Source: a virus. Taken from it: 64,000 nt of DNA. Of this stretch, positions 2,752 to 56,425 are shown in pieces. The stretch is from positions 13,468-77,467 of the IMG/VR virus record IMGVR_UViG_3300035145_003920; one strand, given 5' to 3'. Made by a program: the position numbers and the translations under genes. The notes below the pieces were generated by a model. It ran no database searches, was not told the DNA's origin, and was given only the letters and a program-made list of their open reading frames with translations. Positions within the stretch are counted from its first letter, which is position 1; each line of letters starts with the position of its first letter.

Positions 2752-4122
2752 TTATTTTTCTAATTCGAAAAACTTTTTTCTTAATAACTGTTTATCAAAA
2801 GTATCAACATCAGTATCAAACTTATTAGATTGAGATGGTGGAGCGAGTTGTTCATTGTCCTCGCTATCTTGGTAATCAAATACTTCGAAGTGACCTGTTG
2901 AAGTATCTGCATTTACAGAAAAAGTGAGACCATCCATCCCGTATCTATTTTTCATAATATGATATCTACCAGTATTATTTACTTTATCTTCTTTTTTACG
3001 AGAAAGAGACATCGCGAAATCAGAAATCATCATCTTATCATATGATCCTGCTGCTTTATCTCCTTCAATTATTTTATCTTGAGCTCCCGCTCTATTTACC
3101 TGCGAAACTGACCAAATAGGAATGTCTAGCTGCCTAGCAAGGCCTTTTGTGCTTGTATAAATATCATCAATTTCGTCCTTACGCTCACGATTTTTCTTTC
3201 TTGATGAAAGTAAATCAACGTAATCAATTATAACCATATCAGGTTTAATTCCCATTCCTGAGCATTTGTTAATATGAGATTCTATTGTTGAGATAGTCGC
3301 ACGTCCTGTTGGAAATTCTTTAATTATTAACTGTCCTGGCAATTGGGGAATTGTTTCTTCTACTTTATCTCTAAATGAATCTATTTTATTAACTGGTACT
3401 TTGGTAAAGAAAGCGTCATATCTTTTACCAACATAATCTTCTCCTAATTCAAGTGTATAATGAAGTACATTATATCCTAATCTAACAGCATAACCTCCTA
3501 AGGCAACAAGAGACCACGATTTACCACCTCCAGGATTACCAAAGATAAGACCAAAATCTCCGTTTCCAAGTCCACCTTGTAATAAACCATTAATACGTTC
3601 CCAAGGTGTTGGTATAGTTGTTCTTGAATTTTCTCTATACCTTTCTTCAATGTCTTTAATATACTCATGTCCTATATTTTTATCTTGGCCTGCTTTTAAA
3701 GCATTATCAATTAAAAAACGAATACCATCAAAATCACCTCCTTTAAGTAAATCAACAGAAGACATTAATGCCTTTTTTAATTGTTGATTTCTACAAAAGT
3801 TAGTAAATTCTTCTTGTACATATTCTAAATCCTCATCTGAAGTAACATATGCTTCTTTAAGTTGTTCTTTAATAGATATTTGTAATACTTCATTATCTAC
3901 TTTTTGTAATTCAACTTTTAATATATCTAATGAAGGAGTAGTATGATATTTGTCATAATAATTTAAAATTTCTTTAATAGCCCATTTTTGAGCTGGGTTT
4001 TCAAAATATTCTTCACTTATAATATCGTGAATGTTAGTTAAAAATTCTTTATGTGTTAATAAAGAAGATAAAACCTTTATTTGAAATTCGTGTCCGTATT
4101 GATTTATACTATTGAGTGTCAA
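2752..4122 (-). CDS. Replicative DnaB/T4 gp41-like helicase
   Basis: Walker A GNPGGGKS, TLELGE, IIDYVDL, SQVNR, KNRYG. Confidence 0.93.
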   Translation of the reverse strand: MTLNSINQYGHEFQIKVLSSLLTHKEFLTNIHDIISEEYFENPAQKWAIKEILNYYDKYHTTPSLDILKVELQKVDNEVLQISIKEQLKEAYVTSDEDLEYVQEEFTNFCRNQQLKKALMSSVDLLKGGDFDGIRFLIDNALKAGQDKNIGHEYIKDIEERYRENSRTTIPTPWERINGLLQGGLGNGDFGLIFGNPGGGKSWSLVALGGYAVRLGYNVLHYTLELGEDYVGKRYDAFFTKVPVNKIDSFRDKVEETIPQLPGQLIIKEFPTGRATISTIESHINKCSGMGIKPDMVIIDYVDLLSSRKKNRERKDEIDDIYTSTKGLARQLDIPIWSVSQVNRAGAQDKIIEGDKAAGSYDKMMISDFAMSLSRKKEDKVNNTGRYHIMKNRYGMDGLTFSVNADTSTGHFEVFDYQDSEDNEQLAPPSQSNKFDTDVDTFDKQLLRKKFFELEK

Positions 4123-5159
4123 TCTTTATAACCTTTAAATTGTGAAAATATATCTTTTAACCAAATATCTAAATTTCTAATCATTCCCCCTAATTGATCT
4201 TCATTATAAAATTGAATAAACATATCAGGATTAAATTCTGGGAATTCAGAACTGATTACATCATCCAAATATTCATCTTCTCTTTCATCAATCATAGGAG
4301 TTCCAAGATCCATAACTTTAAAACTTGTTTCAATTCTATCTTGATCTTGAATCACTCTAGAATATACAACATGGTCTTTGAATTTCCTAGTAGAAATTTC
4401 AAAAATGTCATCTAATGTTAAATCTCTTTCTTGTAATTCAGGGAATTTTTTAAATATACCTTTTGCACCTAATCCTTTAACTCCCGGAATATTATCTGAA
4501 TTATCTCCAAGTAATGTTTTATATAAGATAAAGTTTTGGGGAGATACACCAAATTTTTCTTTTACTGCTTGAGGTGTATAATATTCTTTTTCCATTGGTC
4601 TATATAAAATAATTTTATCAGTAACCAATTGAACAAAATCTTTATCAGATGATACAATAAAACATGTAGAATTATGTTTTTTAACTAATTTCTTTGCTAA
4701 TACAGCTATAATGTCATCAGCTTCTACTTTATCAATTATAGTAGTTTTAACAGGTAATAATTTTAAATATTGAATTACTCTAACTATTTGGTCTACTTTA
4801 GAATCATGTTCTTCTTCTAAATTATCAAATGCATCCCAATTAGTAACTCGTTGTAAATTCCTTCCTCCTTTGTATTCGGAGAGCAGGTTCTTCCGGTTGG
4901 CAGTCGAACCCGCTCCATCGAATACTACATAAACAGAGGTTGGTTGGGTTTGTCTAATCATGGCACCTAAAGAGCGAAAGAATCCACCTAACCCACCAAT
5001 GTGAACTCCATCAGGATTGACCATATTCATCATAGCAAAGTTCCTAAAAAATAGATTTAATCCATCTATTAATAATACTTTATCATGTTTTTTTAATATA
5101 GTTTCCTCCCCTTGTTCTTGGACTTCGTCCAACAACTTAAATAACTCTTTGTGCTTCAT
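4119..5159 (-). CDS. 5'-3' exonuclease / T4 RNase H-like flap endonuclease
   Basis: LLIDGLN, VFDG, EADDII, SSDKDF, GDNSDNIPGVKGLG. Confidence 0.95.
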   Translation of the reverse strand: MKHKELFKLLDEVQEQGEETILKKHDKVLLIDGLNLFFRNFAMMNMVNPDGVHIGGLGGFFRSLGAMIRQTQPTSVYVVFDGAGSTANRKNLLSEYKGGRNLQRVTNWDAFDNLEEEHDSKVDQIVRVIQYLKLLPVKTTIIDKVEADDIIAVLAKKLVKKHNSTCFIVSSDKDFVQLVTDKIILYRPMEKEYYTPQAVKEKFGVSPQNFILYKTLLGDNSDNIPGVKGLGAKGIFKKFPELQERDLTLDDIFEISTRKFKDHVVYSRVIQDQDRIETSFKVMDLGTPMIDEREDEYLDDVISSEFPEFNPDMFIQFYNEDQLGGMIRNLDIWLKDIFSQFKGYKD

Positions 5160-5162
5160 AAT

Positions 5163-6236
5163 TTATTCTGGTTCTTTTTCGAACTGAGAGATATCATTTA
5201 CTTCTTGATCCTCTTCTACTACTTGGAAATCCATCCCACCTAATACTTTAGCCCAATCTTTAGCATGATTAGTTTTGTATTTTTTAAGTTCATTTGGATC
5301 ATCATTAATAAAACCATGAGGTGTCATTACAATTCTACCTCTAGTAGTAACACCATTAATATGATTTTTATCAATTTGTAGATTAGTTCTTTTAGCAAAT
5401 TCAACTTGCTTACCATCTTTAATTGCTTTAATTTTAGATGTTCCAGCAGTCATAATATTACCAAATGTAACTACAAATGTTGAATCAAACCACATTGCAT
5501 AACCTCCTTTATTCATCAACTTAGGTTGACCCATTGGAGATTCTGGTTTTAATGTCCAAACTTTATTTACACATACTAATGTATTAGTAAATGGTGAAGA
5601 TTCCTTTCTCGATAATGTAATCTTTTGATTAACATTATTTCCAAATTGGGTTGACATAGCACCTGCATTCCACTCATTATTATTTTTATTTGATTTAAGT
5701 GACATTTCACAAGGTACAGAACCAATACTATCCCATAAGAATAATAAGTCATAAGGTAAATTACCTTTCTTTTGTTCGTCCATTAAATCTAAGATAAATG
5801 CTGCTACGTCTTCAATTGAATTAATAGTTTCTCTATCAACATAAATAAAATTACCTTCATAATCAATAATTTCACCATTGTCATCTCGAGTAATATTAAT
5901 ATCAAGACCCATCTGAATAGCATGCTCCCAATTCCACTTCATCTCAGTAATGATGAAGACTGGCAGTACCCCATTATTCTGAGCGGATACTGCAGCTTCA
6001 ATCATTGCTGTTGTCTTACCAGTGTCAGAATGACCTCTAAGTAAAACAATGTGACCCATAGGAATTCCAGGTACGGAAGTAACATCACTAAAGGCCTGTG
6101 AAAGGGGAATCCATTCTTGGTCTTTAAATTTGATATTCTTATCTAAACCTTTTTTATTTTTAAAGGCATTAAGATCAAATTTAGATTGTATCTCAGCAGA
6201 CACTGCTGCTGATAATGATTTGCTTTTTCTAGGCAT
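5163..6236 (-). CDS. RecA/UvsX-like recombinase
   Basis: P-loop GHSDTGKT, WDSIGS, KGG motif, position in replication module. Confidence 0.85.
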   Translation of the reverse strand: MPRKSKSLSAAVSAEIQSKFDLNAFKNKKGLDKNIKFKDQEWIPLSQAFSDVTSVPGIPMGHIVLLRGHSDTGKTTAMIEAAVSAQNNGVLPVFIITEMKWNWEHAIQMGLDINITRDDNGEIIDYEGNFIYVDRETINSIEDVAAFILDLMDEQKKGNLPYDLLFLWDSIGSVPCEMSLKSNKNNNEWNAGAMSTQFGNNVNQKITLSRKESSPFTNTLVCVNKVWTLKPESPMGQPKLMNKGGYAMWFDSTFVVTFGNIMTAGTSKIKAIKDGKQVEFAKRTNLQIDKNHINGVTTRGRIVMTPHGFINDDPNELKKYKTNHAKDWAKVLGGMDFQVVEEDQEVNDISQFEKEPE

Positions 6237-6238
6237 AA

Positions 6239-7075
6239 TTAAAATGGTAAATCGTCAACTTTTTCCTTTTTCTCATCAAACAAACTATCAAATTCATCTG
6301 TTTTTGATTGTTTTGCTTTAGAAGTATCTAAACTAAAATTCGAGGTCGGCTTATCATCAAATGATTCAGCTGGCTCTGAAACAATATCTCCTTCTTCAGC
6401 AGCATCATCAGGTGATAACCACTTTTCTAAAGCAGACTTCATTTCATCAAACGAATATCTCTTAAATAATTCTTCAGGATTTGGTTGAGTTTTTAACCAT
6501 TCTTGAACTTTACTAGAATCTTCACTAAGTGCAGATGTTTTAAGTCTAACTCTTACTGATGACTTATTGTAAGGAGTACCTGTTGACTCTGGTCCTACAG
6601 TTTCTACTGTTAAATCTCTACCACCAGATACATCTGTGTAATCTCCGATTTCTTCATCTACAGCAAGCGCTAATAGCTCTTCATAAACTTGCTTACCAAA
6701 TTGCCATAGTCTAACACCTTTATCTTCCTCACCTCTAACAATTACAGGAGCAAAGATTCTAGTTTTAGCATCAAGCTTTTTAGCTAGAATATAATTTTCC
6801 TTATTATACTCTTCTCTAAGTTTTTGAGCAAATAAATAAATAGGGTCTTTTTCACCGAAGTTAAGTGGTGAAATCATAACCTTATTTGTAATCCCATAAT
6901 AGAACTTTAGTTCCTTAAATGGGTTTGAAGAATTATACGCTGATGGTACAATCCTTACTTGTTGTTTACCCACAGTTGGTCTCCAGAAAATTGTTGTATA
7001 ATCTGTTTTTTGACCACTTGAGTTTGATTTTTGTTGGAGTCCGTCCAACTTCTGTTTAAGTAATGATAAATCCAT
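6239..7075 (-). CDS. Single-stranded DNA-binding protein (gp32-like)
   Basis: FWRP..VRIVP, VRLWQFGK, GRDL, acidic tail ending DDLPF. Confidence 0.85.
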   Translation of the reverse strand: MDLSLLKQKLDGLQQKSNSSGQKTDYTTIFWRPTVGKQQVRIVPSAYNSSNPFKELKFYYGITNKVMISPLNFGEKDPIYLFAQKLREEYNKENYILAKKLDAKTRIFAPVIVRGEEDKGVRLWQFGKQVYEELLALAVDEEIGDYTDVSGGRDLTVETVGPESTGTPYNKSSVRVRLKTSALSEDSSKVQEWLKTQPNPEELFKRYSFDEMKSALEKWLSPDDAAEEGDIVSEPAESFDDKPTSNFSLDTSKAKQSKTDEFDSLFDEKKEKVDDLPF

Positions 7076-7134: not shown

Positions 7135-7602
7135 CTATAGTTCAATAATCTTAAAAATCTTTGTATTTAATTGATTTAGCTCGTTATGTTGAGTAAGTAA
7201 GATACAATTTCTGTAGTGTTGCCAATCAATTCTGAATTTGGTATCAACGACGCCACCATTTAGCTTCTTAATTAACTCATTTAAAGCATTAATCGTATAC
7301 AAAGTATTTGATTCTTTTTTTCTATGCACCAATATAGTATTCTCAGGTATGGTACTCACGTTAGCTTGTTCAACATTGTAAGTCACAACATATTCTTCTT
7401 TACCAACAATCTCTAAAACAAAGAGTTTGTTGTAAATAATTTCATATTGTGATTTGATATCCTCTATAAGAGTGTCAAGACCTTCTAAATTTGTAAAGGT
7501 GCAAAATAATTTATTATTCAAGTCGCTTAAATTTTGTATGGTTGTTATAACGTCATATTCCGCGTTATACGTATTAAGCTCTCTATCCAAAGTTGTAATC
7601 AT
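7135..7602 (-). CDS. Hypothetical protein; true start may be the TTG before NNKLFCTF (~7521)
   Basis: Fills the gap between polymerase and SSB; a promoter-like ATACGTATAA lies inside the annotated 5' end. Confidence 0.7.
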   Translation of the reverse strand: MITTLDRELNTYNAEYDVITTIQNLSDLNNKLFCTFTNLEGLDTLIEDIKSQYEIIYNKLFVLEIVGKEEYVVTYNVEQANVSTIPENTILVHRKKESNTLYTINALNELIKKLNGGVVDTKFRIDWQHYRNCILLTQHNELNQLNTKIFKIIEL

Positions 7603-8851
7603 AACCTTCTATCTCTTTAATATTTAATTTATATTTTTTGAAAATATTTCTAATATCTTCTAAAAGTTTGGATTCATTTTCATCAAAATCGAATAAGAAT
7701 GAATCATATGTATACAACACTAATTTTGTTTTGTGTTGCTTTAATGTACAAAATATATCCCACAAAATCAACGTATTTAAAGACGTTTCCATATTTTGTA
7801 GTATATAATTAAACAGTTTTTGCGGCTTCATATTTTCCAATTCATCCTTCGTATATACAAAGTTTGAAATAGGACATTCTACAAACCCCTCACTATTAAA
7901 TTTTTTCCAGGCTTCATCTATAAATCCTTGAACTTTTTGAAAGAACTCAAGATGTCTATAATTTTCGAAAACTCCCCCATAAAGCTGTTTAAAAGTAAGC
8001 TCTTTCGATTTTTTGTAATCCACTTTATATAGGGCAGCAAAATGAGAGTGAATATCACTAGTGGGAAAGCTATAATTAACGAGGCGAGCAGCCAAACTAG
8101 GATGGTAAGCAGAGATATCAATTTCCACAAATTTAGTATTACGAGGAATAAAACTCTTTCTACATCCGTTTTCTTTATTAAGTGCGGCATAATTTACATT
8201 TTTAAATTTATTTGATGGTCTTGTTGTAGTTGTTTTTAAGTTGTACTGAGTGTAAACTCGTTCACCATCAATGGTATGGAAGTATCCTTCGAAGGTAGGA
8301 ACGTGTACTTGAAGTCCACTTCGCTCGATAGCGTTGAATACCACGGATACTCTACTGTTATAGAATTCATTATATTTTGTTTTTTCATTATTAATATTAT
8401 TTTTTAGATCTTCCCAAATCATCTCACACATTTCATAGTGTTTAACAATTGGGATAATTTTATTTAACTCCGGATTATCACTATGTTGTCTATAATATAA
8501 TTCATGAGTTGATGTTGTAGGTCGTATATACGTAGTAGGTGGTATATTGATGTCATAGAGCTCTTTTAGGCAAAAATAATGCAATATCTCCTTTTTATCT
8601 CTACAATATAACTTTTCATACTTACTTAGTATTTCGTTTATACACGTATTTGCTCCATTAAATGTCTCACTATGGTCAACACATAACATAAACCCCTTAC
8701 TTGCTAGTAATGGCCTAATATACACCAATGACACACTATTTTGTGCCGGGTGTATTTTATCGTTAAATGGGATTATTTCAATAAATGCTTCTTTATAACC
8801 ACTATTGTAAAAACCCTTTAACTGCTCTTCATTTTCTATAAGCCAGTACAT
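7583..8851 (-). CDS. Reduced, atypical family A DNA polymerase
   Basis: TTRPSN..N (motif 2), EIDISAYH (motif A), KELTFKQLYG (motif B), NYILQ, LYTYDSFLFD (motif C). Confidence 0.8.
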   Translation of the reverse strand: MYWLIENEEQLKGFYNSGYKEAFIEIIPFNDKIHPAQNSVSLVYIRPLLASKGFMLCVDHSETFNGANTCINEILSKYEKLYCRDKKEILHYFCLKELYDINIPPTTYIRPTTSTHELYYRQHSDNPELNKIIPIVKHYEMCEMIWEDLKNNINNEKTKYNEFYNSRVSVVFNAIERSGLQVHVPTFEGYFHTIDGERVYTQYNLKTTTTRPSNKFKNVNYAALNKENGCRKSFIPRNTKFVEIDISAYHPSLAARLVNYSFPTSDIHSHFAALYKVDYKKSKELTFKQLYGGVFENYRHLEFFQKVQGFIDEAWKKFNSEGFVECPISNFVYTKDELENMKPQKLFNYILQNMETSLNTLILWDIFCTLKQHKTKLVLYTYDSFLFDFDENESKLLEDIRNIFKKYKLNIKEIEGYDYNFG

Positions 8852-8864
8852 AAAACCTTTTTCG

Positions 8865-8896
8865 ACAATATAAAACCTCTATTTAGCCCCTCCAAT
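8865..8896 (-). promoter_or_regulatory. Bacteroidota-type promoter (polymerase)
   Basis: ATTG-N20-TATATTGT. Confidence 0.55.
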
Positions 8897-9539
8897 ATTT
8901 ATCAAACTTTCCTTTAAATGAGAGTTTGAATCCATAAAGTTTTTGTTTTTGTTCACTTAAAGCTACTATTGATTCATTACGGTTGTATACTTCTTCTTTA
9001 CTACCTTTTAAATTCCATCCAATTTTTATTGGAACATATAAATTATAATCAACAGAAGGATCTAAATCTAAAAATAAGCGATATTCTTCAAGTGATACTT
9101 CAATAAATTGGCTTTCATTTCCTTTTTTAATAAAATATCTTTCAAAAATACCTCTGTTATAATCTTCTTCTGTTGGATAGGGAATTGATTTAATTGGAGG
9201 TCTAGGTGCATCTCCTCTATCTTTTATTTTTCTAGAAGCATAATAATCAGCATCTTCAATATACATGTTTACTCCTCTAGGTTCATTATGAGCTACTCTT
9301 TTAAAAGAAGATTTGTTATTTTTAGGATTAACTGTTGGGTTTGATAATTCGGATTCTGATGGTTTAATAACTTCTAATGGTTCGCTATTTTTTTGATTTG
9401 GGTTAGTACCTGAATAGAAGCTTCCATCAGCTGTTTTATAATAAGCACCAATATATTCTTCAAATGGGGTTCTAATATATTTTAATTCACCTCCATTTGT
9501 ATAAAGATCTGTTACTATTTGATGTTGTGGGTAATACAT
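8883..9539 (-). CDS. Hypothetical protein (end of baseplate operon)
   Basis: 218-aa ORF abutting the hub gene. Confidence 0.75.
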   Translation of the reverse strand: MYYPQHQIVTDLYTNGGELKYIRTPFEEYIGAYYKTADGSFYSGTNPNQKNSEPLEVIKPSESELSNPTVNPKNNKSSFKRVAHNEPRGVNMYIEDADYYASRKIKDRGDAPRPPIKSIPYPTEEDYNRGIFERYFIKKGNESQFIEVSLEEYRLFLDLDPSVDYNLYVPIKIGWNLKGSKEEVYNRNESIVALSEQKQKLYGFKLSFKGKFDKYWRG

Positions 9540-13362: not shown

Positions 13363-15509
13363 TTATTAATATAATTTATATCATCATAATTATTATTAAA
13401 CCCATTATCTAAAGCTATATATCTTTCTTTACCAAATTTAGTTAGATCACCATTCTTTTTAAAGCTATTTCTTTGAACTTGAGGGGTAAATTCATGTATT
13501 GGAATAAAGTTAAATCCTGTTACTTTAATTATATGAGGCATTTCTTTTACCGTTTTATCAGATTTAATTTTATTATTTCCTGTTCCTACTGTACTTTCAG
13601 GATTTGTTGGTATACCTATTTCCCAAGGTGATTCTTCAGGAACACCATAAGATAAACTTGTAATAATTCCTGGTTGTTCATATAAGTAACCCCCAACAGT
13701 TAAAGTAGCTAAATTGCCTCTCATATATCCTATAGTTTTAGAATAATCAGGTGCTAATGTTGAAGCTAAATAATTTAACTTTTGGTACATTGGCATTAAT
13801 TCTTGTTTAGATTGGGCTGCTACTGTCCAACCTAACGAAATTTTTCTATCAAATCCATTATATCTGTAGAAATTTTCTCCTCTACCCATGAATTTATCTG
13901 AATTCCATTCTGCACTATAATCATCATTCATTGAATCTAAAAATGCTCTAAAATGAATAAATACTTTTTGTGAAGGATTATCATTTTGAATAATTCCAAT
14001 TCTAAATTTAACTAAATCATTTTTATCTTTATCTTGTCTAACTATTCCTGATTTATATAATCTAATAGCATTGACTTTATCTACAGGATCTAATTCTGTT
14101 ATAGATTTGTCTTTATCTCTTCCTATTTGTTGTTTACCTATTTGATAATTTCTTGTGTCATTCTTTTTACCTGGGTTTCCTAAACCAACTCTAGTTTCAA
14201 TATTACTATCAGGATAACTTAAGCTAATAGTGTTTTTTCTATAATCTTCTGTTATTGTAGGATTTTCTTTACTAGATTGTCTTGCAAGTATATCTTCACT
14301 TACATTATAAGAATTTGGAGCTATTAATTTTCCATCTGCTCCAAATGCACTTTTCATAACATCTGTTACTTGAGTAACAGGATTATTATTAAATTTTTGT
14401 AAATCAAGTTGGTTTTGAAAGGCACTTAAATTTGCACTTAAATCTTTATTTAAAAACTTACTAAATGGGTTTGGTTTTGGGGCAGAAGATGAATTATTAT
14501 TTAAAAATTCTAGATATTTAGTAGAAGCTCCTATTCTTTTAAATTGATCATTTGTAGTAAGACTTACATATTCTGCATCATTAGTAAATAAATTACGTCC
14601 TGTATATGTTGAAGGAGTATATCTGGTATTATATTTTCCACTATTAATTGTATCAACATTTAATTGATTTAAAAAGTTATTACCACTAAAATTATTAGAA
14701 CCAAATTGAATTGGTTTAGATATGTCAATATTAGTTGGAAAAGAAAAATCAGGGGTTTTAATATCCATACCTCCAGCCCAACTTACTCCTCCTTTTACAT
14801 AATTTAAATTTGGGTTATTTAAACCTGTTCTTTGTTTAGATAAAGGTATTCTTGTTTTTCCTATACCTAATATAGCACCAGGTCCTCCTTGATAATTAAA
14901 AAGTTCTGTTGCAGATGTTTTTTTATTTACCTTTTCAGTAGTAAATTGTTTTAATTTACTTTCATAATTAGGATTTGAAGTTATTTCAATATAAGTTGGT
15001 TGTCCTAATGGATCTGTAGCACCAAATAATTCAAATATACCTCCTCCATTTTTTCCAATACCTTTAAATGGATCAATTCCTTGTTTATTTAAATGCAGGC
15101 CTATAGAGTTACCAGCGCTCTGTAATAAAGTAGAGGTCGGTAAGTATATACCGTTATTTAACGCTTTACCTTTGCCATCTGTGGCAACGGACATACGAGA
15201 TAGTAAATTTTCTTTGGCTATGAATAATGGACCTCCAATTGATTTAAAATCAAAAAACATTTGAGCTAATCTAGAAACGTCCCTAACTGCTCTACCAGGC
15301 ATTAAAGTACCGCCTCTTAGTAGAACATCAGGCCCACCAGATCTATCAACCCCGCTTAAATCCCTATTTGCATCCGCTGAGAATGGTAAATTTGGATTAC
15401 CAGGTAAGTCTCTAGTAATATATGGTTGGTTACTAGATCCTCCCCCTACGCGATCTTTAGTATATCTGAGGCTTTTTAGATTTGTTTTAAAATCAATTAA
15501 TCCTCCCAT
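13359..15509 (-). CDS. Baseplate / tail-tube initiator-like protein
   Basis: C-terminal tube-like domain FRAFL..W..GRGENFYRYNGFDR; lies between tape measure and LysM genes. Confidence 0.65.
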   Translation of the reverse strand: MGGLIDFKTNLKSLRYTKDRVGGGSSNQPYITRDLPGNPNLPFSADANRDLSGVDRSGGPDVLLRGGTLMPGRAVRDVSRLAQMFFDFKSIGGPLFIAKENLLSRMSVATDGKGKALNNGIYLPTSTLLQSAGNSIGLHLNKQGIDPFKGIGKNGGGIFELFGATDPLGQPTYIEITSNPNYESKLKQFTTEKVNKKTSATELFNYQGGPGAILGIGKTRIPLSKQRTGLNNPNLNYVKGGVSWAGGMDIKTPDFSFPTNIDISKPIQFGSNNFSGNNFLNQLNVDTINSGKYNTRYTPSTYTGRNLFTNDAEYVSLTTNDQFKRIGASTKYLEFLNNNSSSAPKPNPFSKFLNKDLSANLSAFQNQLDLQKFNNNPVTQVTDVMKSAFGADGKLIAPNSYNVSEDILARQSSKENPTITEDYRKNTISLSYPDSNIETRVGLGNPGKKNDTRNYQIGKQQIGRDKDKSITELDPVDKVNAIRLYKSGIVRQDKDKNDLVKFRIGIIQNDNPSQKVFIHFRAFLDSMNDDYSAEWNSDKFMGRGENFYRYNGFDRKISLGWTVAAQSKQELMPMYQKLNYLASTLAPDYSKTIGYMRGNLATLTVGGYLYEQPGIITSLSYGVPEESPWEIGIPTNPESTVGTGNNKIKSDKTVKEMPHIIKVTGFNFIPIHEFTPQVQRNSFKKNGDLTKFGKERYIALDNGFNNNYDDINYINK

Positions 15510-50423: not shown

Positions 50424-50996
50424 TTACTGTTTAAGTGATTCTAAATATTCTACAACTTCTTTAGTAGATTTTTTAATTTCTTCTTTATTATGTTTTCCTC
50501 TCCACTTTTCAACATCTCCGTCTTCTGAAATAAAGGATTGAGTAGATTCATTTGATTTTTCTTTTGCCCAAGCTTTAAAATCTTTTATTTTATTATCAAT
50601 TTCATTATTTTTAATGCTACGCTCATACTCTTCCCATTTTCCAGTTTTTCTAAGCTCATGTTCAAAATCAATAACACAATTAAAACACATTTTATGTATA
50701 GTGTAAAATGGCTTATCATTACGATTTTTCATTACTTTTTTACATTTAGGACAAAGTAAAGGCATTACATGGGCCTTTTTAGCTTTGTCTAACTTAGTAA
50801 TGTTTTGTTTTATGCCATCTTTAATAGTCCAAGTACGACCATCAGCTTCCCAAATATCTCCTTCTTTATGGAATTCTTCTGCTTTAGTAAATCCAACACT
50901 AGAACGTGTTTTTTCACCATATTTACCTTTTACAAGATTTCTAATTCGTTCTACATCACGTTGTTGGAAATCTTTTTTTAAAATGTTGTCTTTCAT
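50424..50996 (-). CDS. Zn-ribbon protein
   Basis: CPKC...CFNC. Confidence 0.75.
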   Translation of the reverse strand: MKDNILKKDFQQRDVERIRNLVKGKYGEKTRSSVGFTKAEEFHKEGDIWEADGRTWTIKDGIKQNITKLDKAKKAHVMPLLCPKCKKVMKNRNDKPFYTIHKMCFNCVIDFEHELRKTGKWEEYERSIKNNEIDNKIKDFKAWAKEKSNESTQSFISEDGDVEKWRGKHNKEEIKKSTKEVVEYLESLKQ

Positions 50997-53584
50997 AAAC
51001 CTAATTTAGCCAAATCATTTAATACCTGACTTATATTTTTATACACTATACCTGTACCTCCAGCTGCATTCCATCTTCCAATAGTATCTTCTCTATCATC
51101 AATTAAAATATCAGTTTTAGATAATTGAGATTTAATTTCATGTTTTTCCTTTGCCTTTTTAAAATTAATACGGGGTTTTGATGGGAATATATCTCCTGTA
51201 TGATTCCTTACCCAAAGTATTTTACCTAAATAAGATTGTTTTTTAACTGAAGGTGAGGTTAGTAATTCATAATTATAATCTTTAACAGCATTTACTAAAT
51301 CAGCTGCCCCTGGCATGGGTTCAATTCCAACCCAAAAACTAACTTTATGTTCTTCATCTATAAAATCCCAGAATTTATTTTTACCATATTTAGATTCAAA
51401 TTCACTAGGGCCTATACCTGATAGATCTTTAAATCGTTTATCAAAATCAGCTAATACTCCATCCATATCAAGATAAACTTTATATTCACTTTCTTCTTCT
51501 CTTAAACGACCTAATTCATGAGCATAAGCCATAAGTCCAAATGGATCCTTATTTTTCTTTTTCCCTTCAGTTAAAATAGTACTAAAAAAGTTATGTTTAA
51601 TTTTTTCTAAATCTTTATATAACCTATTTATAGGGGGAAGACTTTCATCTATTTTTATTTCTTCATTTAATTTATTCCCAGTAATAGAATCAGTCCAACT
51701 TCTAAACATTATATTACCTGTTTCATATGCCTCTCTTTCTAACTGTTCTAAATGGTCGTCTTGATTAACATCTGTAGTATTAATAGTTTCTAATCTATCT
51801 TCCATATTTTGATGAACATGAACTAATTCATGGGCATAAGATCGTAAAATATCTTTAGGATGCCTACCATAAGTGAAAAGAACTATTATATTAGTTTGAG
51901 GAGCATAATAAGCTGTTTTACCAAAAATATCTTCTCCATTTTCAATATCATCATGTACCATTTGAATTTGAGGAAGAGGTTCTAATTTCATTCCTTTATC
52001 TATCATATGTTGAGTAAGAGAAGCTATATAAGGGCTGTAATTAAATTTTCTAAAATCTGGATATTTACTAAATATTTTTTCATATATTAAATCCAATTCT
52101 TCAGATGAAGATATTTCAATTACTTGGTTTTGGGTAAGTACAACAGCATCAATATATTTTTTATCTAATTCTTTATAACTTACGTATCTATGATGACCAT
52201 CTAATATTTGATATTGATTATTATGTTCCCTAACTATAATTGGGGGAATAGATTCTTTATTAGATATAGAAGATTTTAGTGATTTAATTTTATCATCATC
52301 AAATTTTGTTGTTTTATGTAAATTGATATTATTTACTAAAATAGGAGTTGGAGAAGTTGATTCAATTAAATCCTGATTAAATTTAAATGTTGTATCTATC
52401 TTATCTCCATGTAAAACTATTAATGGGAAATCTTCATTTATATTAGTTGGTACTTTTAATGGTTGAGTAGCAAAATATTTTTTAAGATTAACTTTACCTT
52501 TTGAATCTTTTAAAGGTATAGTTTTAGGAAGGGTATTTTCATCCCATTTTGTTCCTGGGACTGCTAAAAGTATTTGATCTTCAGATAATATTTTTGTATT
52601 TATTTTTGGAAGATTTCCAATAACAAATGCTCCTAATCTATGGTTACCATCTATAACTGAGTATTTACCATTTAAAATAGGATGAGGAACTACTACTATA
52701 GGATCAAAACTTTTCCAGCCATCTCCAGAAGCATTTTTTATCATTTTTTCTACATATTCCTTTTTAGTAGTTGTAAAATATTTATAATCTTTATAAGGTT
52801 CATTTCCTATACAGTCAGTTACATTTAAAATTTTTTCTGTACCTATAATATCTTCGTCTACATCCACACCTTGAAAATCAGGGTAAACTACTACTTTATC
52901 TTTAAATGGGTCTTTAGTACTAAAATCTAAAACTAAATTAGTTTCAGTAAAATATTTAAGTTCGGATTTTATTTGGTCTATTTTATTCATTTGTGAAAAA
53001 CTTTTATTTTCAGCTACTTTACCAGATACTAATTCATATACTTCATATTTTTCATCATTAGATAAAACATCAGGAGCAAATTTTTTAAATTTTTCAAATG
53101 ATACTTGAGCCGCGTTTCTAGCAGCAGTACCCGATACTCCTCCTGCTGTAATAATAGTACGTAATTCTAAATTTGGGTAATTTGAAATTGACTTGGTTCT
53201 TGAAGTAATATCTTTAAAATCTTCTTCATTACCTTCTCTAGCACCTATAACCCATAATACTTCTCTTGTGGGGTGATCCTTAGAGAAATTATAAACAGCT
53301 TGAATTGGGGGTTTAGAAGTAGGTACTATTTTAACTTTAAGTGGAAGATAATCATTATAAATTTCCCAAATTAAAACTGATTCTGCTTGGGTAATACCAT
53401 TTCTTTCTTTGTTACCTACAAAAATAATAAATTCATCTATTTCCGGGTTTTCCTTAAGGGCTTCTTTAACTACTTCAAAGTGACCAGAAGTAGGAGGTTT
53501 AAACCCTCCAGCATACACTGCTGTGGTTTGTTTGTTTTCTTCTTCAGGTAATAACCCTTTTATTAATTCATTTACTAAACTCAT
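50993..53584 (-). CDS. Multi-enzyme protein: nucleotidyltransferase-like + 2x ParB/Srx-like + HExxH metallopeptidase + HAD 5'(3')-nucleotidase
   Basis: AGGFKPPTSGH; VIDGNHR and ILDGHHR; AHELVH..EREAY; YLDMDGVLADF..ILIDD..W..AGG. Confidence 0.8.
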   Translation of the reverse strand: MSLVNELIKGLLPEEENKQTTAVYAGGFKPPTSGHFEVVKEALKENPEIDEFIIFVGNKERNGITQAESVLIWEIYNDYLPLKVKIVPTSKPPIQAVYNFSKDHPTREVLWVIGAREGNEEDFKDITSRTKSISNYPNLELRTIITAGGVSGTAARNAAQVSFEKFKKFAPDVLSNDEKYEVYELVSGKVAENKSFSQMNKIDQIKSELKYFTETNLVLDFSTKDPFKDKVVVYPDFQGVDVDEDIIGTEKILNVTDCIGNEPYKDYKYFTTTKKEYVEKMIKNASGDGWKSFDPIVVVPHPILNGKYSVIDGNHRLGAFVIGNLPKINTKILSEDQILLAVPGTKWDENTLPKTIPLKDSKGKVNLKKYFATQPLKVPTNINEDFPLIVLHGDKIDTTFKFNQDLIESTSPTPILVNNINLHKTTKFDDDKIKSLKSSISNKESIPPIIVREHNNQYQILDGHHRYVSYKELDKKYIDAVVLTQNQVIEISSSEELDLIYEKIFSKYPDFRKFNYSPYIASLTQHMIDKGMKLEPLPQIQMVHDDIENGEDIFGKTAYYAPQTNIIVLFTYGRHPKDILRSYAHELVHVHQNMEDRLETINTTDVNQDDHLEQLEREAYETGNIMFRSWTDSITGNKLNEEIKIDESLPPINRLYKDLEKIKHNFFSTILTEGKKKNKDPFGLMAYAHELGRLREEESEYKVYLDMDGVLADFDKRFKDLSGIGPSEFESKYGKNKFWDFIDEEHKVSFWVGIEPMPGAADLVNAVKDYNYELLTSPSVKKQSYLGKILWVRNHTGDIFPSKPRINFKKAKEKHEIKSQLSKTDILIDDREDTIGRWNAAGGTGIVYKNISQVLNDLAKLGL

Positions 53585-54381
53585 TAAGATAAAAATTGTT
53601 TAATTTTAGATTGTGCTTCTTCTTTAGATACAGAACCATCTATAATTTCTTTAGCTCCATCATCACTTAATAAAGCTTGTATTTGGGTATTTGTTTCAGC
53701 TTTTTGTTTATCACTTCTAGCTTGTTGAGATGCCGATTTAGGTTTAGTTCCTGTGGGTTTGAATGGGTCTAAATATTTTTTAATTACATCCTCCACATCT
53801 TTTAACTTTTCATCTTCTAATGTATTAGCTACAGAAATAAAATTATTACCAAACATTTCTTTATATGGTGCCCAATTTTTAGTTACTGATAACCAAGTAC
53901 GCATTACAATAGCAGGTGCTAAACTTCTATCTTCACCATTTGATTTTTCAAATCTATCTTGGTTTTGTTTAAGTGATCTTTCTAAATCAGTATAAACATA
54001 AAGCATTAATATTTCATATCCTGCTTCTTCTAATTGATCTTTTAAAGTTACTGTTTGTTTAACTGAAGCAGCGGTACCATCTAAAACAAATGATTCTTTA
54101 CCAGTAATTATATTTTGCAATTCACCTTTAAATTCTTTATTAGCTGCAGCCATTGCCTTAGCTTGTTCACTTCTTTCTTCAGGTGTGGCATTTTTTAAAT
54201 CTAAACTAACATTAGCTTGTTTAAGTTTATCAATAAAAATATTATCAATATTCATTATTTTTAAATTACCTAAGTCTAAACCACTTAAAACATACCCTTT
54301 GCCAGCCCCAGGTGCCCCTGCTAATATAATAGCTTTAGGGTTTTGAACATTTTCCTTAAGTAAGTCGTAAAGTTTAATCAT
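53584..54381 (-). CDS. P-loop kinase (zeta-toxin/AAA_33-like)
   Basis: LAGAPGAGK, FVLDGT, N..R..R; leader MIKLYDLLKE. Confidence 0.75.
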   Translation of the reverse strand: MIKLYDLLKENVQNPKAIILAGAPGAGKGYVLSGLDLGNLKIMNIDNIFIDKLKQANVSLDLKNATPEERSEQAKAMAAANKEFKGELQNIITGKESFVLDGTAASVKQTVTLKDQLEEAGYEILMLYVYTDLERSLKQNQDRFEKSNGEDRSLAPAIVMRTWLSVTKNWAPYKEMFGNNFISVANTLEDEKLKDVEDVIKKYLDPFKPTGTKPKSASQQARSDKQKAETNTQIQALLSDDGAKEIIDGSVSKEEAQSKIKQFLS

Positions 54382-54731: not shown

Positions 54732-55499
54732 TTACACGGTTCTCTTAACAGTAGTTTGAAAAGAAGTAGTAGCTGGTTTATGTTTTGGGTTTTCTAAATC
54801 AAATAATTTTTTAACTGATCCAAATATTTCTAAGTTTTCTTCTTGGGTTCTAGGTGATTCATATATTTCCCAATTTTTACCTTTTAATCTAGCACCAGAT
54901 TTATCAACTCCTCTAGATTTAGATTTTAACCATAATACACCTATTCTATCTACTTTTTTACCAAAACATTCTTCATAACACTTAGCATAAACAGCACCTT
55001 GTAAATCATATGTAGTTTGTAAGTGATTTGATGTTTTAAAATCAATAACCCATAATTCACCATCAATTTCACAAATACAATCTACGGTACCTGCTACTTT
55101 TAATCCATCTGAGAATAGGTGAGTTTCTGTTTCAACTAATGTTGGTTTATATGTTTCCCAAAAATCAACAAATCTTAAAAACATTTTCCATATTTCAGGA
55201 TTCATTTTAGGATTACCATACTCATTTAAGAAGTTCATTTCTTTACCTTCAAAGTATTCCTCTATTAATTCATGTACTGCTGTACCTTCTTCAGATGCTT
55301 TTTTAACAATCCAATCTGCACTATATCCTACTTTTTTAAGCCAATCTTGAAAATGTTTACCCTTAGGATAAGAATTTAAAACATAAGTTACAGAGGGATA
55401 ATATTCTCCATTACGTCTATAATAACGTGAATCAGGTAGTGTAATTTGTTTGTGATCATCTGAGATCTCTAATATTCTATCATATGATTTTTTGATCAT
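54732..55499 (-). CDS. PD-(D/E)xK (Cas4/RecB-like) exonuclease
   Basis: YPSVT, GTAVH, AGTVDC, IDFKTS, Q..Y. Confidence 0.88.
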   Translation of the reverse strand: MIKKSYDRILEISDDHKQITLPDSRYYRRNGEYYPSVTYVLNSYPKGKHFQDWLKKVGYSADWIVKKASEEGTAVHELIEEYFEGKEMNFLNEYGNPKMNPEIWKMFLRFVDFWETYKPTLVETETHLFSDGLKVAGTVDCICEIDGELWVIDFKTSNHLQTTYDLQGAVYAKCYEECFGKKVDRIGVLWLKSKSRGVDKSGARLKGKNWEIYESPRTQEENLEIFGSVKKLFDLENPKHKPATTSFQTTVKRTV

Positions 55500-56425
55500 A
55501 AAGCTAGTTTTCTTTCCATTAAATTATAGTAGGTTAATGGAACTGTGTTTTGAATTAATTTAGTGAAATTCTTGAAACCCATTTCACTTGGATCCTTATC
55601 TTGTAAATCAACAAGATAGACTTCTTTACCTTCTGCCATTAAATTTTCACAGAAACGTAAAGCTTGTTTCATAGCATCCCTATCTAATGCTATATAAATT
55701 TTATCTACTACAGAAGTAACTATTTTTTTCATTAAGCTACTTTGAATATTTTTTCCTAATAATGGTATTGCATTTCGTTTAATAGCAATAGCATCAAATA
55801 ATCCTTCACATATTACAATTGGTATATTCCAATTAATTAAATGTTCATTTGGAATTATATCTCTACTTGCTGAAGGATTTCTATATTTGATATAAGGTTC
55901 TTTTTCAAATGAACGAGCTGTAAAATAATTTAATCTACCATCTTTATCATAAGTTGGAATAATAATCATATTAGCATATAAACCATTTTTACAATAACCT
56001 ATATTATATTTAATTACATCGTATTTACTTATATTTCTCCTTTTTAAGTAGGCGAGTGCGTGTTTAGCAGAAATATCGCTTAAATTACCAGTAGATAGGC
56101 TTATATATTCATTAGGTAATACTACACTGTTAACAACTTGTGTTTCTTTTATTGATTTAGAAGTTTTAACTAATGATTTTAATTCAGTATACTTCCCTGC
56201 TTCTACTTTAAGTTGTTTAAATAAGTTATATATAGTAGTTCCTCTAACATCACAAGCCCAACAATGCCAAGGATTTTTTCCTTCTCTATTTTCTGTTAAA
56301 TTAACCTCTAATTTAGGTTTATGGTGGTTACAAAAAGGACAATGGTATGCATAATTATTTCTAGCAGTGGGTTTGCCAGAACCTAATACAGAATTAACTA
56401 ATGTAACTAATAATTGATTTACCAT
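55496..56425 (-). CDS. DNA primase (Zn-finger + TOPRIM)
   Basis: CPFC..H..CWAC; CEGLFDA; ALDRDA; KDPSE. Confidence 0.9.
   Translation of the reverse strand: MVNQLLVTLVNSVLGSGKPTARNNYAYHCPFCNHHKPKLEVNLTENREGKNPWHCWACDVRGTTIYNLFKQLKVEAGKYTELKSLVKTSKSIKETQVVNSVVLPNEYISLSTGNLSDISAKHALAYLKRRNISKYDVIKYNIGYCKNGLYANMIIIPTYDKDGRLNYFTARSFEKEPYIKYRNPSASRDIIPNEHLINWNIPIVICEGLFDAIAIKRNAIPLLGKNIQSSLMKKIVTSVVDKIYIALDRDAMKQALRFCENLMAEGKEVYLVDLQDKDPSEMGFKNFTKLIQNTVPLTYYNLMERKLAL

Follow-up and report, generated by a model that had tools for sequence, protein, structure and literature searches.

We describe a compact family-A DNA polymerase gene and its neighbors in a 64,000-nt stretch of phage DNA (hereafter the window), which covers positions 13,468 to 77,467 of IMG/VR record IMGVR_UViG_3300035145_003920. 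The parent phage contig is 77.5 kb long, with a CheckV completeness of 48%; the window has a G+C content of ~30% and carries nearly all of its genes on the minus strand, to which every window coordinate given below refers. The polymerase is a 422-aa open reading frame (ORF) at 7583 to 8851, recognized by its homology to a known phage protein, its AlphaFold2 (AF2) model, and a profile match to the Klenow fragment. It is preceded directly by an ORF of 218 aa (8883 to 9539) and followed by one of 155 aa, here called p155 (7135 to 7602), the first 20 nt of which overlap the end of the polymerase gene.

Judged by its sequence, the polymerase almost certainly belongs to divPolA1, a family named and described from sequence, as an additional polymerase of large marine phages, by Yutin et al. 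(2024, Virol J 21:200; PMC11348598). Its nearest cultured relative is Flavobacterium phage vB_FspM_immuto (hereafter immuto), whose gp001 is 37.9% identical over 98% coverage (tblastn, E 2e-82), and the gene order around the polymerase is the same in the two phages. In the published account, divPolA1 is carried by immuto and 13 related phages with genomes of 155 to 190 kb. Its members conserve the catalytic residues of the palm, have a truncated thumb and an exonuclease domain inactivated by replacement of all three aspartates, and are adjoined downstream by a conserved set of replication genes; each of these genomes also holds, elsewhere and adjoining GroEL/ES genes, a “regular” PolA, PolB, or PolC (PMC11348598). 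The window polymerase shares the homology, the catalytic palm, the truncated thumb, and the downstream replication genes, as well as the loss of exonuclease carboxylates as judged at the Exo I strand (residues 21 to 28). The kind of polymerase was thus published in outline in 2024, and the window gene is a new and fairly divergent member of it.

A Klenow Fold Lacking the Thumb and the Proofreading Site

The AF2 model of the polymerase (mean predicted local distance difference test score [pLDDT] 96.1, predicted template modeling score 0.93) superposes on the large fragment of Bst Pol I with a Z score of 27, aligning 389 to 395 of the 422 residues (93%) at 3.2 to 3.5 Å and spanning residues 1 to 422. 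Foldseek matches it to apPOL, Klenow, and Taq with E values of ~1e-16, and among the matches listed all of the top ones are DNA polymerases. The family profile aligns with Klenow at E 2e-10. Pfam DNA_pol_A (PF00476) gives a weak match of 21.2 bits against a curated cut-off of 34.3, and searches of PHROGs, NCBIfam, and the ESM Atlas returned nothing for this protein.

In the profile alignment, residues 236 to 323 of the Klenow chain (approximately Pol I 559 to 646, the thumb) are skipped while the profile moves on by three positions, so that ~88 thumb residues are absent. What stands in their place is a stub of 16 residues (183 to 198; 8258 to 8305) between the segments IERSGLQV (175 to 182) and VYTQYN (199 to 204), containing a single short helix (184 to 190) in the AF2 model. 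Across an alignment of family representatives (see below) the stub varies from 4 to 24 residues. The divPolA1 of Microcystis phage Mel-JY01 (L096, 5644 to 6870) has a stub that is shorter still and also lacks a strand equivalent to VYTQ.

The N-terminal region (approximately residues 1 to 160; 8372 to 8851) is an exonuclease-like domain, whose superposition starts at residue 1 and, on the Bst side, at residue 300. The polymerase is matched by none of the Pfam exonuclease families, and there is no conserved acidic residue for Exo I (D-x-E) in the first beta-strand (residues 21 to 28), where E25 is found in 35 of 132 representatives and the other position is I27. Because Exo I is lost, we infer a polymerase without proofreading. 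The domain carries a near-invariant polar set of its own (H34, H60, E/D62, D100, N130, H138, and E140), which could possibly form a metal or ligand site.

A Rewired Active Site Conserved across the Family

A database-wide HMMER search retrieved 1,074 clusters at 50% identity (~4,500 at 90%), and the full-length family members among the matches listed are 400 to 470 aa long. From these matches we drew 132 representatives sharing at most 50% identity, over which all conservation counts were taken. Profile alignment equates R211 with Klenow R668, D245 with D705, H250 with E710, K283 with K758, F287 with F762, Y291 with Y766, and Q352 with Q849, and in motif C Y382 with H881, D383 with D882, and S384 with E883.

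Motif A, D245-ISAY-H250 (8102 to 8119), has an invariant Asp and places a His at the position of the Klenow gate residue E710. This position is His in 130 of 132 representatives and Gln in the other two, and the His is also found in immuto, Mel-JY01, the 484-kb jumbo phage LR756508, and the IMG/VR relative G001. Motif B, K283-x3-F287-x3-Y291-G (7976 to 8005), retains its Lys throughout, with Phe in 121/132 and Tyr in 129/132. In motif C, Y382-D383-S384 (7700 to 7708), the Asp is invariant and is followed by Ser (97/132) or Ala (35/132). An additional acidic residue, Glu355 (7787 to 7789), lies one turn past the Gln of the helix aligned with Klenow helix Q, at the position of Klenow A852, and is likewise invariant. 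Altogether R211, D245, K283, E355, and D383 are identical in 132/132, and F287, Y291, and Q352 are nearly so.

A preliminary description of this DNA had proposed a thumb-less mini PolA of 422 aa with His at the steric gate, YDS in place of HDE in motif C, and no visible exonuclease motifs. These observations are borne out, and their conservation over the 132 representatives shows them to be typical of the family and not peculiar to the window sequence. Aligning the family profile with Klenow restores neither a thumb nor a gate Glu. The metal ligands, the Lys and Tyr of motif B, R211, and Q352 are kept across ~1,000 clusters, which argues for a working enzyme under selection; on this sequence evidence the protein is very probably an active DNA polymerase. 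In Klenow it is the thumb that grips the product duplex, and removal of no more than its tip causes a sharp drop in DNA affinity and processivity; for this reason the enzyme on its own should be distributive.

An Overlapping Gene Co-inherited with the Polymerase

Of 80 IMG/VR loci, 77 have a p155 gene downstream of the polymerase. In two of the other three the sequence stops with the polymerase gene, and in the last (L071) the ~750 nt that follow it contain no match. Among the 75 loci in which the p155 ORF can be delimited, its start overlaps the polymerase stop by 14 to 35 nt in most and otherwise lies within 44 nt (74/75), the sole wide gap being 681 nt (L055). In at least seven loci, insertions separate p155 from the downstream gene for a single-strand DNA-binding protein (SSB). 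p155 is also more conserved than its neighbor, with identities in the same loci of 59 to 88% versus 44 to 81% for the polymerase; in immuto, gp002 is 56% identical to p155 and the polymerase 38%. The linkage extends to distant carriers: Mel-JY01 (hhalign E 2e-28 for p155) and the 484-kb phage (E 1.5e-34) have both genes, and their polymerases are only 30 to 35% identical. Among 50,697 phage records, p155 and the polymerase match the same six.

The AF2 model of p155 (pLDDT 76.7) has a disordered N terminus of 27 residues, which is absent from distant homologs, and an alpha/beta core of ~130 residues composed of two beta-alpha-beta-beta halves (pLDDT 82 to 91). The BFVD model of a 37%-identical homolog, itself unannotated, superposes at 1.3 Å. 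Foldseek found nothing in the Protein Data Bank at E 0.001 or better, and PHROGs, NCBIfam, and the ESM Atlas returned nothing. In a wide VIA search, origin-binding domains of polyomavirus T antigens recur at Z scores of 5 to 5.6 (SV40, 5.1 to 5.6 over ~100 residues), which is within noise. The most conserved stretch of p155, NTILVHRKKESNTLYTINALN, is basic, which would suit nucleic-acid binding.

A single complex prediction of divPolA1 with p155, with alignments as input, gave ipSAE values of 0.01 and 0.00, which weighs neither way. Six longer ORFs contain p155, including one joining it to the C-terminal half of the polymerase (P0393) and one joining it to gp32 (P0391). They could be real fusions or assembly artifacts; each is a singleton among >8,000 homologs, and with some of them plainly chimeras they carry little weight at most. 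The preliminary description had envisaged a split enzyme in which the overlapping ORF supplies missing functions. The strict linkage, co-occurrence, and higher conservation of p155 give such a partnership strong genomic support. The p155 fold gives it no structural support, resembling neither the helical hairpin of a thumb nor an exonuclease. From sequence, we put the chances that p155 is a physical partner of the polymerase at about even.

The Surrounding Replication Cassette

Downstream of p155 follow genes for a gp32-like SSB (6239 to 7075; Pfam gp32 E 2.3e-9, PHROG 1192), a RecA/UvsX-like recombinase (5163 to 6236; Pfam RecA, the UvsX-like PHROG 97, and PHROG 8337), a Pol I-type 5'-3' exonuclease or flap endonuclease (FEN; 4119 to 5159; Pfam 5_3_exonuc_N E 2.9e-36), and a DnaB-like replicative helicase (2752 to 4122; Pfam DnaB_C E 7e-17). 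A ribonucleotide reductase also lies downstream of the polymerase, after the SSB, RecA, FEN, and DnaB genes, in the same order as in immuto. Away from this cassette the window encodes a DnaG-type primase (55496 to 56425; Pfam DNAG_N, Zn_ribbon_DnaG, and Toprim) and T4-like structural genes (gp23, the gp20 portal, the sheath, and the large terminase). No sliding clamp or clamp loader turned up in general scans, which included no search aimed at them, and none is annotated in immuto. The T4-type replisome proposed in the preliminary description is therefore recovered in part: the gp32-like SSB, the UvsX/RecA-like protein, the DnaB-like helicase, the FEN, and gp23/gp20 fit it, and the DnaG-type primase and the lack of a visible clamp or loader do not.

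The 218-aa ORF lies upstream of the polymerase in most IMG/VR loci and has homologs in Mel-JY01 (E 2e-8), the 484-kb phage (E 1e-7), and immuto (gp032, E 3e-5). It matches no family in Pfam, PHROGs, or NCBIfam and, in the ESM Atlas, only unnamed viral clusters. We suggest that it may belong to the cassette. The conserved set comprises the 218-aa ORF, divPolA1, p155, the gp32-like SSB, RecA, FEN and, in most cases, DnaB, and it is kept across Flavobacterium-type phages, a Microcystis phage, and a 484-kb phage.

Elsewhere in the window, an 863-aa protein (50993 to 53584) has a ParB domain at its N terminus, also matches NT5C 5'-nucleotidase weakly and below the cut-off, and is followed by a Zeta-toxin-like kinase (53584 to 54381; E 9e-17).

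Relatives Encode a Second, Regular Polymerase

Every complete or near-complete relative that we checked also holds a regular polymerase. In immuto this is gp199, a 777-aa PolA (192 bits) with a Glu gate (DYTSLE), HDQ in motif C, and a DTE tripeptide near its N terminus, where Exo I would be expected. The IMG/VR relatives G001 (155 kb, 95% complete), G003, and G004 carry a PolB, and so do LR756508 (484 kb) and Mel-JY01, whose genome is complete; a search of five relatives for DnaE/PolC yielded none. The regular polymerase lies 19 to 46 kb downstream of divPolA1 in all six of the genomes named. Two side observations concern these enzymes. First, where Klenow has F762, immuto gp199 (L006, 12899 to 15232) carries Leu (KAYSLGIAYG), besides HDQ instead of HDE in motif C. 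Second, the PolB genes of G001 (L090/L092, 93355 to 95419; 596 and 301 aa) and G003 (L091/L093, 83541 to 85245; 575 and 324 aa) each occupy two separate open frames, which points to a frameshift, an interrupting element, or division of the gene.

The parent contig reaches only ~21 kb downstream of the polymerase and ends just past a QueC gene, which in immuto lies midway between the two polymerases. Because the relatives place their second polymerase beyond the point at which this contig ends, truncation best explains why none is seen here, and a regular PolA or PolB would be expected in the missing half of the genome, making divPolA1 the second polymerase of the phage. A search for another polymerase, also proposed in the preliminary description, is thus answered in the relatives, by a PolA in immuto and a PolB in others, and not in the contig itself. 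As the relatives also carry PolA or PolB, the window polymerase is best viewed as an extra enzyme rather than as a replacement for a T4-type PolB.

Proposed Role and Alternatives

The reading that we favor, and regard as reasonably probable, is of an active, non-proofreading second polymerase of low processivity that works in a conserved cassette with p155 as a likely accessory protein. A compacted Klenow-type enzyme would keep the two-aspartate center and the deoxynucleoside triphosphate (dNTP)-binding helix while having lost the thumb hairpin and the proofreading site, and alone it would hold duplex DNA weakly. The translationally coupled p155, the best candidate for an accessory, would supply the grip on DNA in trans. 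Within the cassette the enzyme would work on short synthesis tracts, either extending strand-invasion intermediates in recombination-dependent replication or, jointly with the flap endonuclease encoded by its own gene, performing Pol I-like gap filling, primer removal, and Okazaki-fragment maturation. The fixed neighbors (SSB, RecA/UvsX, FEN, and helicase) and the separate full-size polymerase of the relatives are the reasons for proposing short tracts; we hold this recombination-linked role more tentatively, at slightly less than even chances.

Several points weigh against this reading. The Klenow R754 position is Tyr in 85 of the 132 representatives, the H734 position is His in 85 and Tyr in 46, and the motif-C Glu is replaced by Ser or Ala throughout; with its dNTP contacts altered in this way, the enzyme could differ from Klenow in activity or substrate. 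We found no biochemistry in the literature for any divPolA1 member. The 77.5-kb, 48%-complete contig yields no second polymerase or PolB, and p155 has no recognizable DNA-binding or polymerase-accessory fold, its best structural match (Z 6.2) being a generic ferredoxin-like one over residues 30 to 92. Finally, Yutin et al., reasoning from the replication-gene context, suggest that divPolA1 serves replication proper, and the regular polymerases sit amid chaperonin and nucleotide-metabolism genes (PMC11348598).

This last point leads to the strongest alternative, in which divPolA1 with p155, the helicase, the SSB, and the primase is the true replicase, and the swappable regular PolA, PolB, or PolC does repair or some other task. 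The divPolA1 gene heads the conserved replication cassette and is kept together with p155 in every lineage that we examined, and the regular polymerase changes among A, B, and C types in a mixed context (PMC11348598). Against this, an enzyme with no thumb, no proofreading, and no clamp in sight would have to copy genomes of 155 to 484 kb that, wherever complete or nearly so, retain a full-size polymerase, one of which (immuto gp199) has DTE where Exo I is expected. We consider the replicase role unlikely.

A bolder version of the p155 partnership is equally doubtful: divPolA1 and p155 would form an obligate two-subunit polymerase, with the p155 core gripping DNA as a thumb in trans, His at the gate, Glu355 standing in for the motif-C Glu, Tyr substituting for R754, and the active site having a substrate preference that no characterized PolA shares.

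A change of substrate, toward ribonucleotides or modified nucleotides and for instance in making or extending primers, seems still less probable. The replacement of the gate Glu by His in 130/132, the loss of the motif-C Glu, and the Tyr that mostly occupies the R754 position would favor such a change, as would the likeness of YD[S/A] to T7 RNA polymerase, in which Ser follows the motif-C Asp (HDS). His is, however, about as bulky as Glu, and His250 most likely still forms a bulky gate against ribonucleotides; in the review consulted (PMC9738464), the PolA mutants whose gate is open to 2'-substituted nucleotides have Gly there. The altered sugar selectivity raised in the preliminary description is accordingly not upheld. 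The top fold matches listed, all of them DNA polymerases, also argue against a new substrate, and a primase role for the mini PolA is unnecessary, a DnaG-type primase being encoded both in the window and in immuto.

A link to modified bases fares no better. In immuto DNA every G is replaced by fdPreQ1 (PMC10516641), and QueC is present in immuto, G001, G003, G004, and this contig (positions 573 to 1247 of the contig, before the start of the window; E 1e-38; ~20 kb from the polymerase on its downstream side, where immuto has it too). The window phage probably also makes 7-deazaguanine DNA, as do many carriers of the family. However, no QueC was found in Mel-JY01 or LR756508, two distant carriers, and 7-deazaguanine enters DNA after replication via DpdA (PMC10516641). 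Such DNA does not explain the family in general, and a tie of the enzyme to base modification is unlikely.

That the protein is a relic without catalysis, which the recombination cassette retains for scaffolding or DNA binding, would agree with the loss of the thumb, exonuclease, motif-C Glu, and R754 equivalent and with its subthreshold Pfam score (21.2 vs. 34.3), but it is barely credible given metal-binding aspartates, motif-B Lys and Tyr, R211, and Q352 that are invariant or nearly so over ~1,000 clusters, which would be unexpected in a dead enzyme.

Comparison with Known Systems

The window polymerase shares with Klenow, Bst, and Taq the overall fold, including the N-terminal exonuclease-like domain, as well as the Asp of motif A, the K-x3-F-x3-Y-G of motif B, the Asn/Gln of helix Q, and the Asp of motif C. 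It differs from them in having ~88 fewer thumb residues, His for the gate Glu, YDS for HDE, no Exo I, and a 5' nuclease encoded in a separate gene, and it is ~160 residues shorter; across the family, Tyr mostly replaces Klenow R754. Set against canonical PolA (PF00476), it has the fold and motifs A, B, and C, and lacks the cut-off score, the Glu gate, and the helical-hairpin thumb. We know of no natural Klenow-type polymerase reduced further than those of this family. A PolA of ~420 aa that has neither thumb nor exonuclease and whose gate is not Glu would reveal how far the thumb and the gate Glu are truly needed, and its compactness could make it a useful small enzyme.

With T7-type single-subunit RNA polymerases the only likeness is the Ser after the motif-C Asp; the His at the gate, the length of 422 aa, and the exonuclease-like N terminus set it apart. 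The locus has the gp32-like SSB, the UvsX/RecA-like protein, and the DnaB-like helicase in common with a T4-type replisome; its primase is DnaG-type, and no PolB was seen in the 48%-complete contig.

Two other groups of divergent PolA enzymes invite comparison. The divPolA2 of barbaviruses is likewise a divergent extra PolA, with no normal thumb and no proofreading, in a phage that has a regular polymerase, but its globular N-terminal domain is unrelated, its gene context varies, and its fold matches are to RNA polymerases (PMC11348598), whereas the window polymerase has a fixed context and top fold matches that, among those listed, are all to DNA polymerases. The APEX and CHEAP “broken-thumb” subfamilies (Czernecki et al., 2023, Nucleic Acids Research; PMC10201439) are likewise auxiliary PolAs with altered thumbs found beside a canonical polymerase, and the APEX exonuclease is inactive. 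Compared by description, they differ in being bacterial and in keeping a thumb with disrupted helices; in the phage-borne divPolA1 the hairpin is deleted.

The closest system is divPolA1 itself, from which the window polymerase differs in no family-defining trait, being 38% identical to immuto gp001 over its full length and of the same size. The text of Yutin et al. (PMC11348598) makes no mention of a steric gate, histidine, motif A, YD[S/A], or Glu355, nor of RecA, SSB, processivity, or a small partner gene. Four points appear to be new: the family-wide gate His, the other rewired contacts together with Glu355, the linkage to p155, and the conserved 218-aa ORF. The known range of the family also grows from the 14 phages of the published account to ~1,000 clusters, a Microcystis phage, and a 484-kb phage; it is abundant in marine and freshwater phage metagenomes. 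What remains new is chiefly the p155 gene, strictly inherited along with the polymerase and a concrete candidate for a polymerase accessory protein of a novel type, and next to it the gate His and the rewired contacts.

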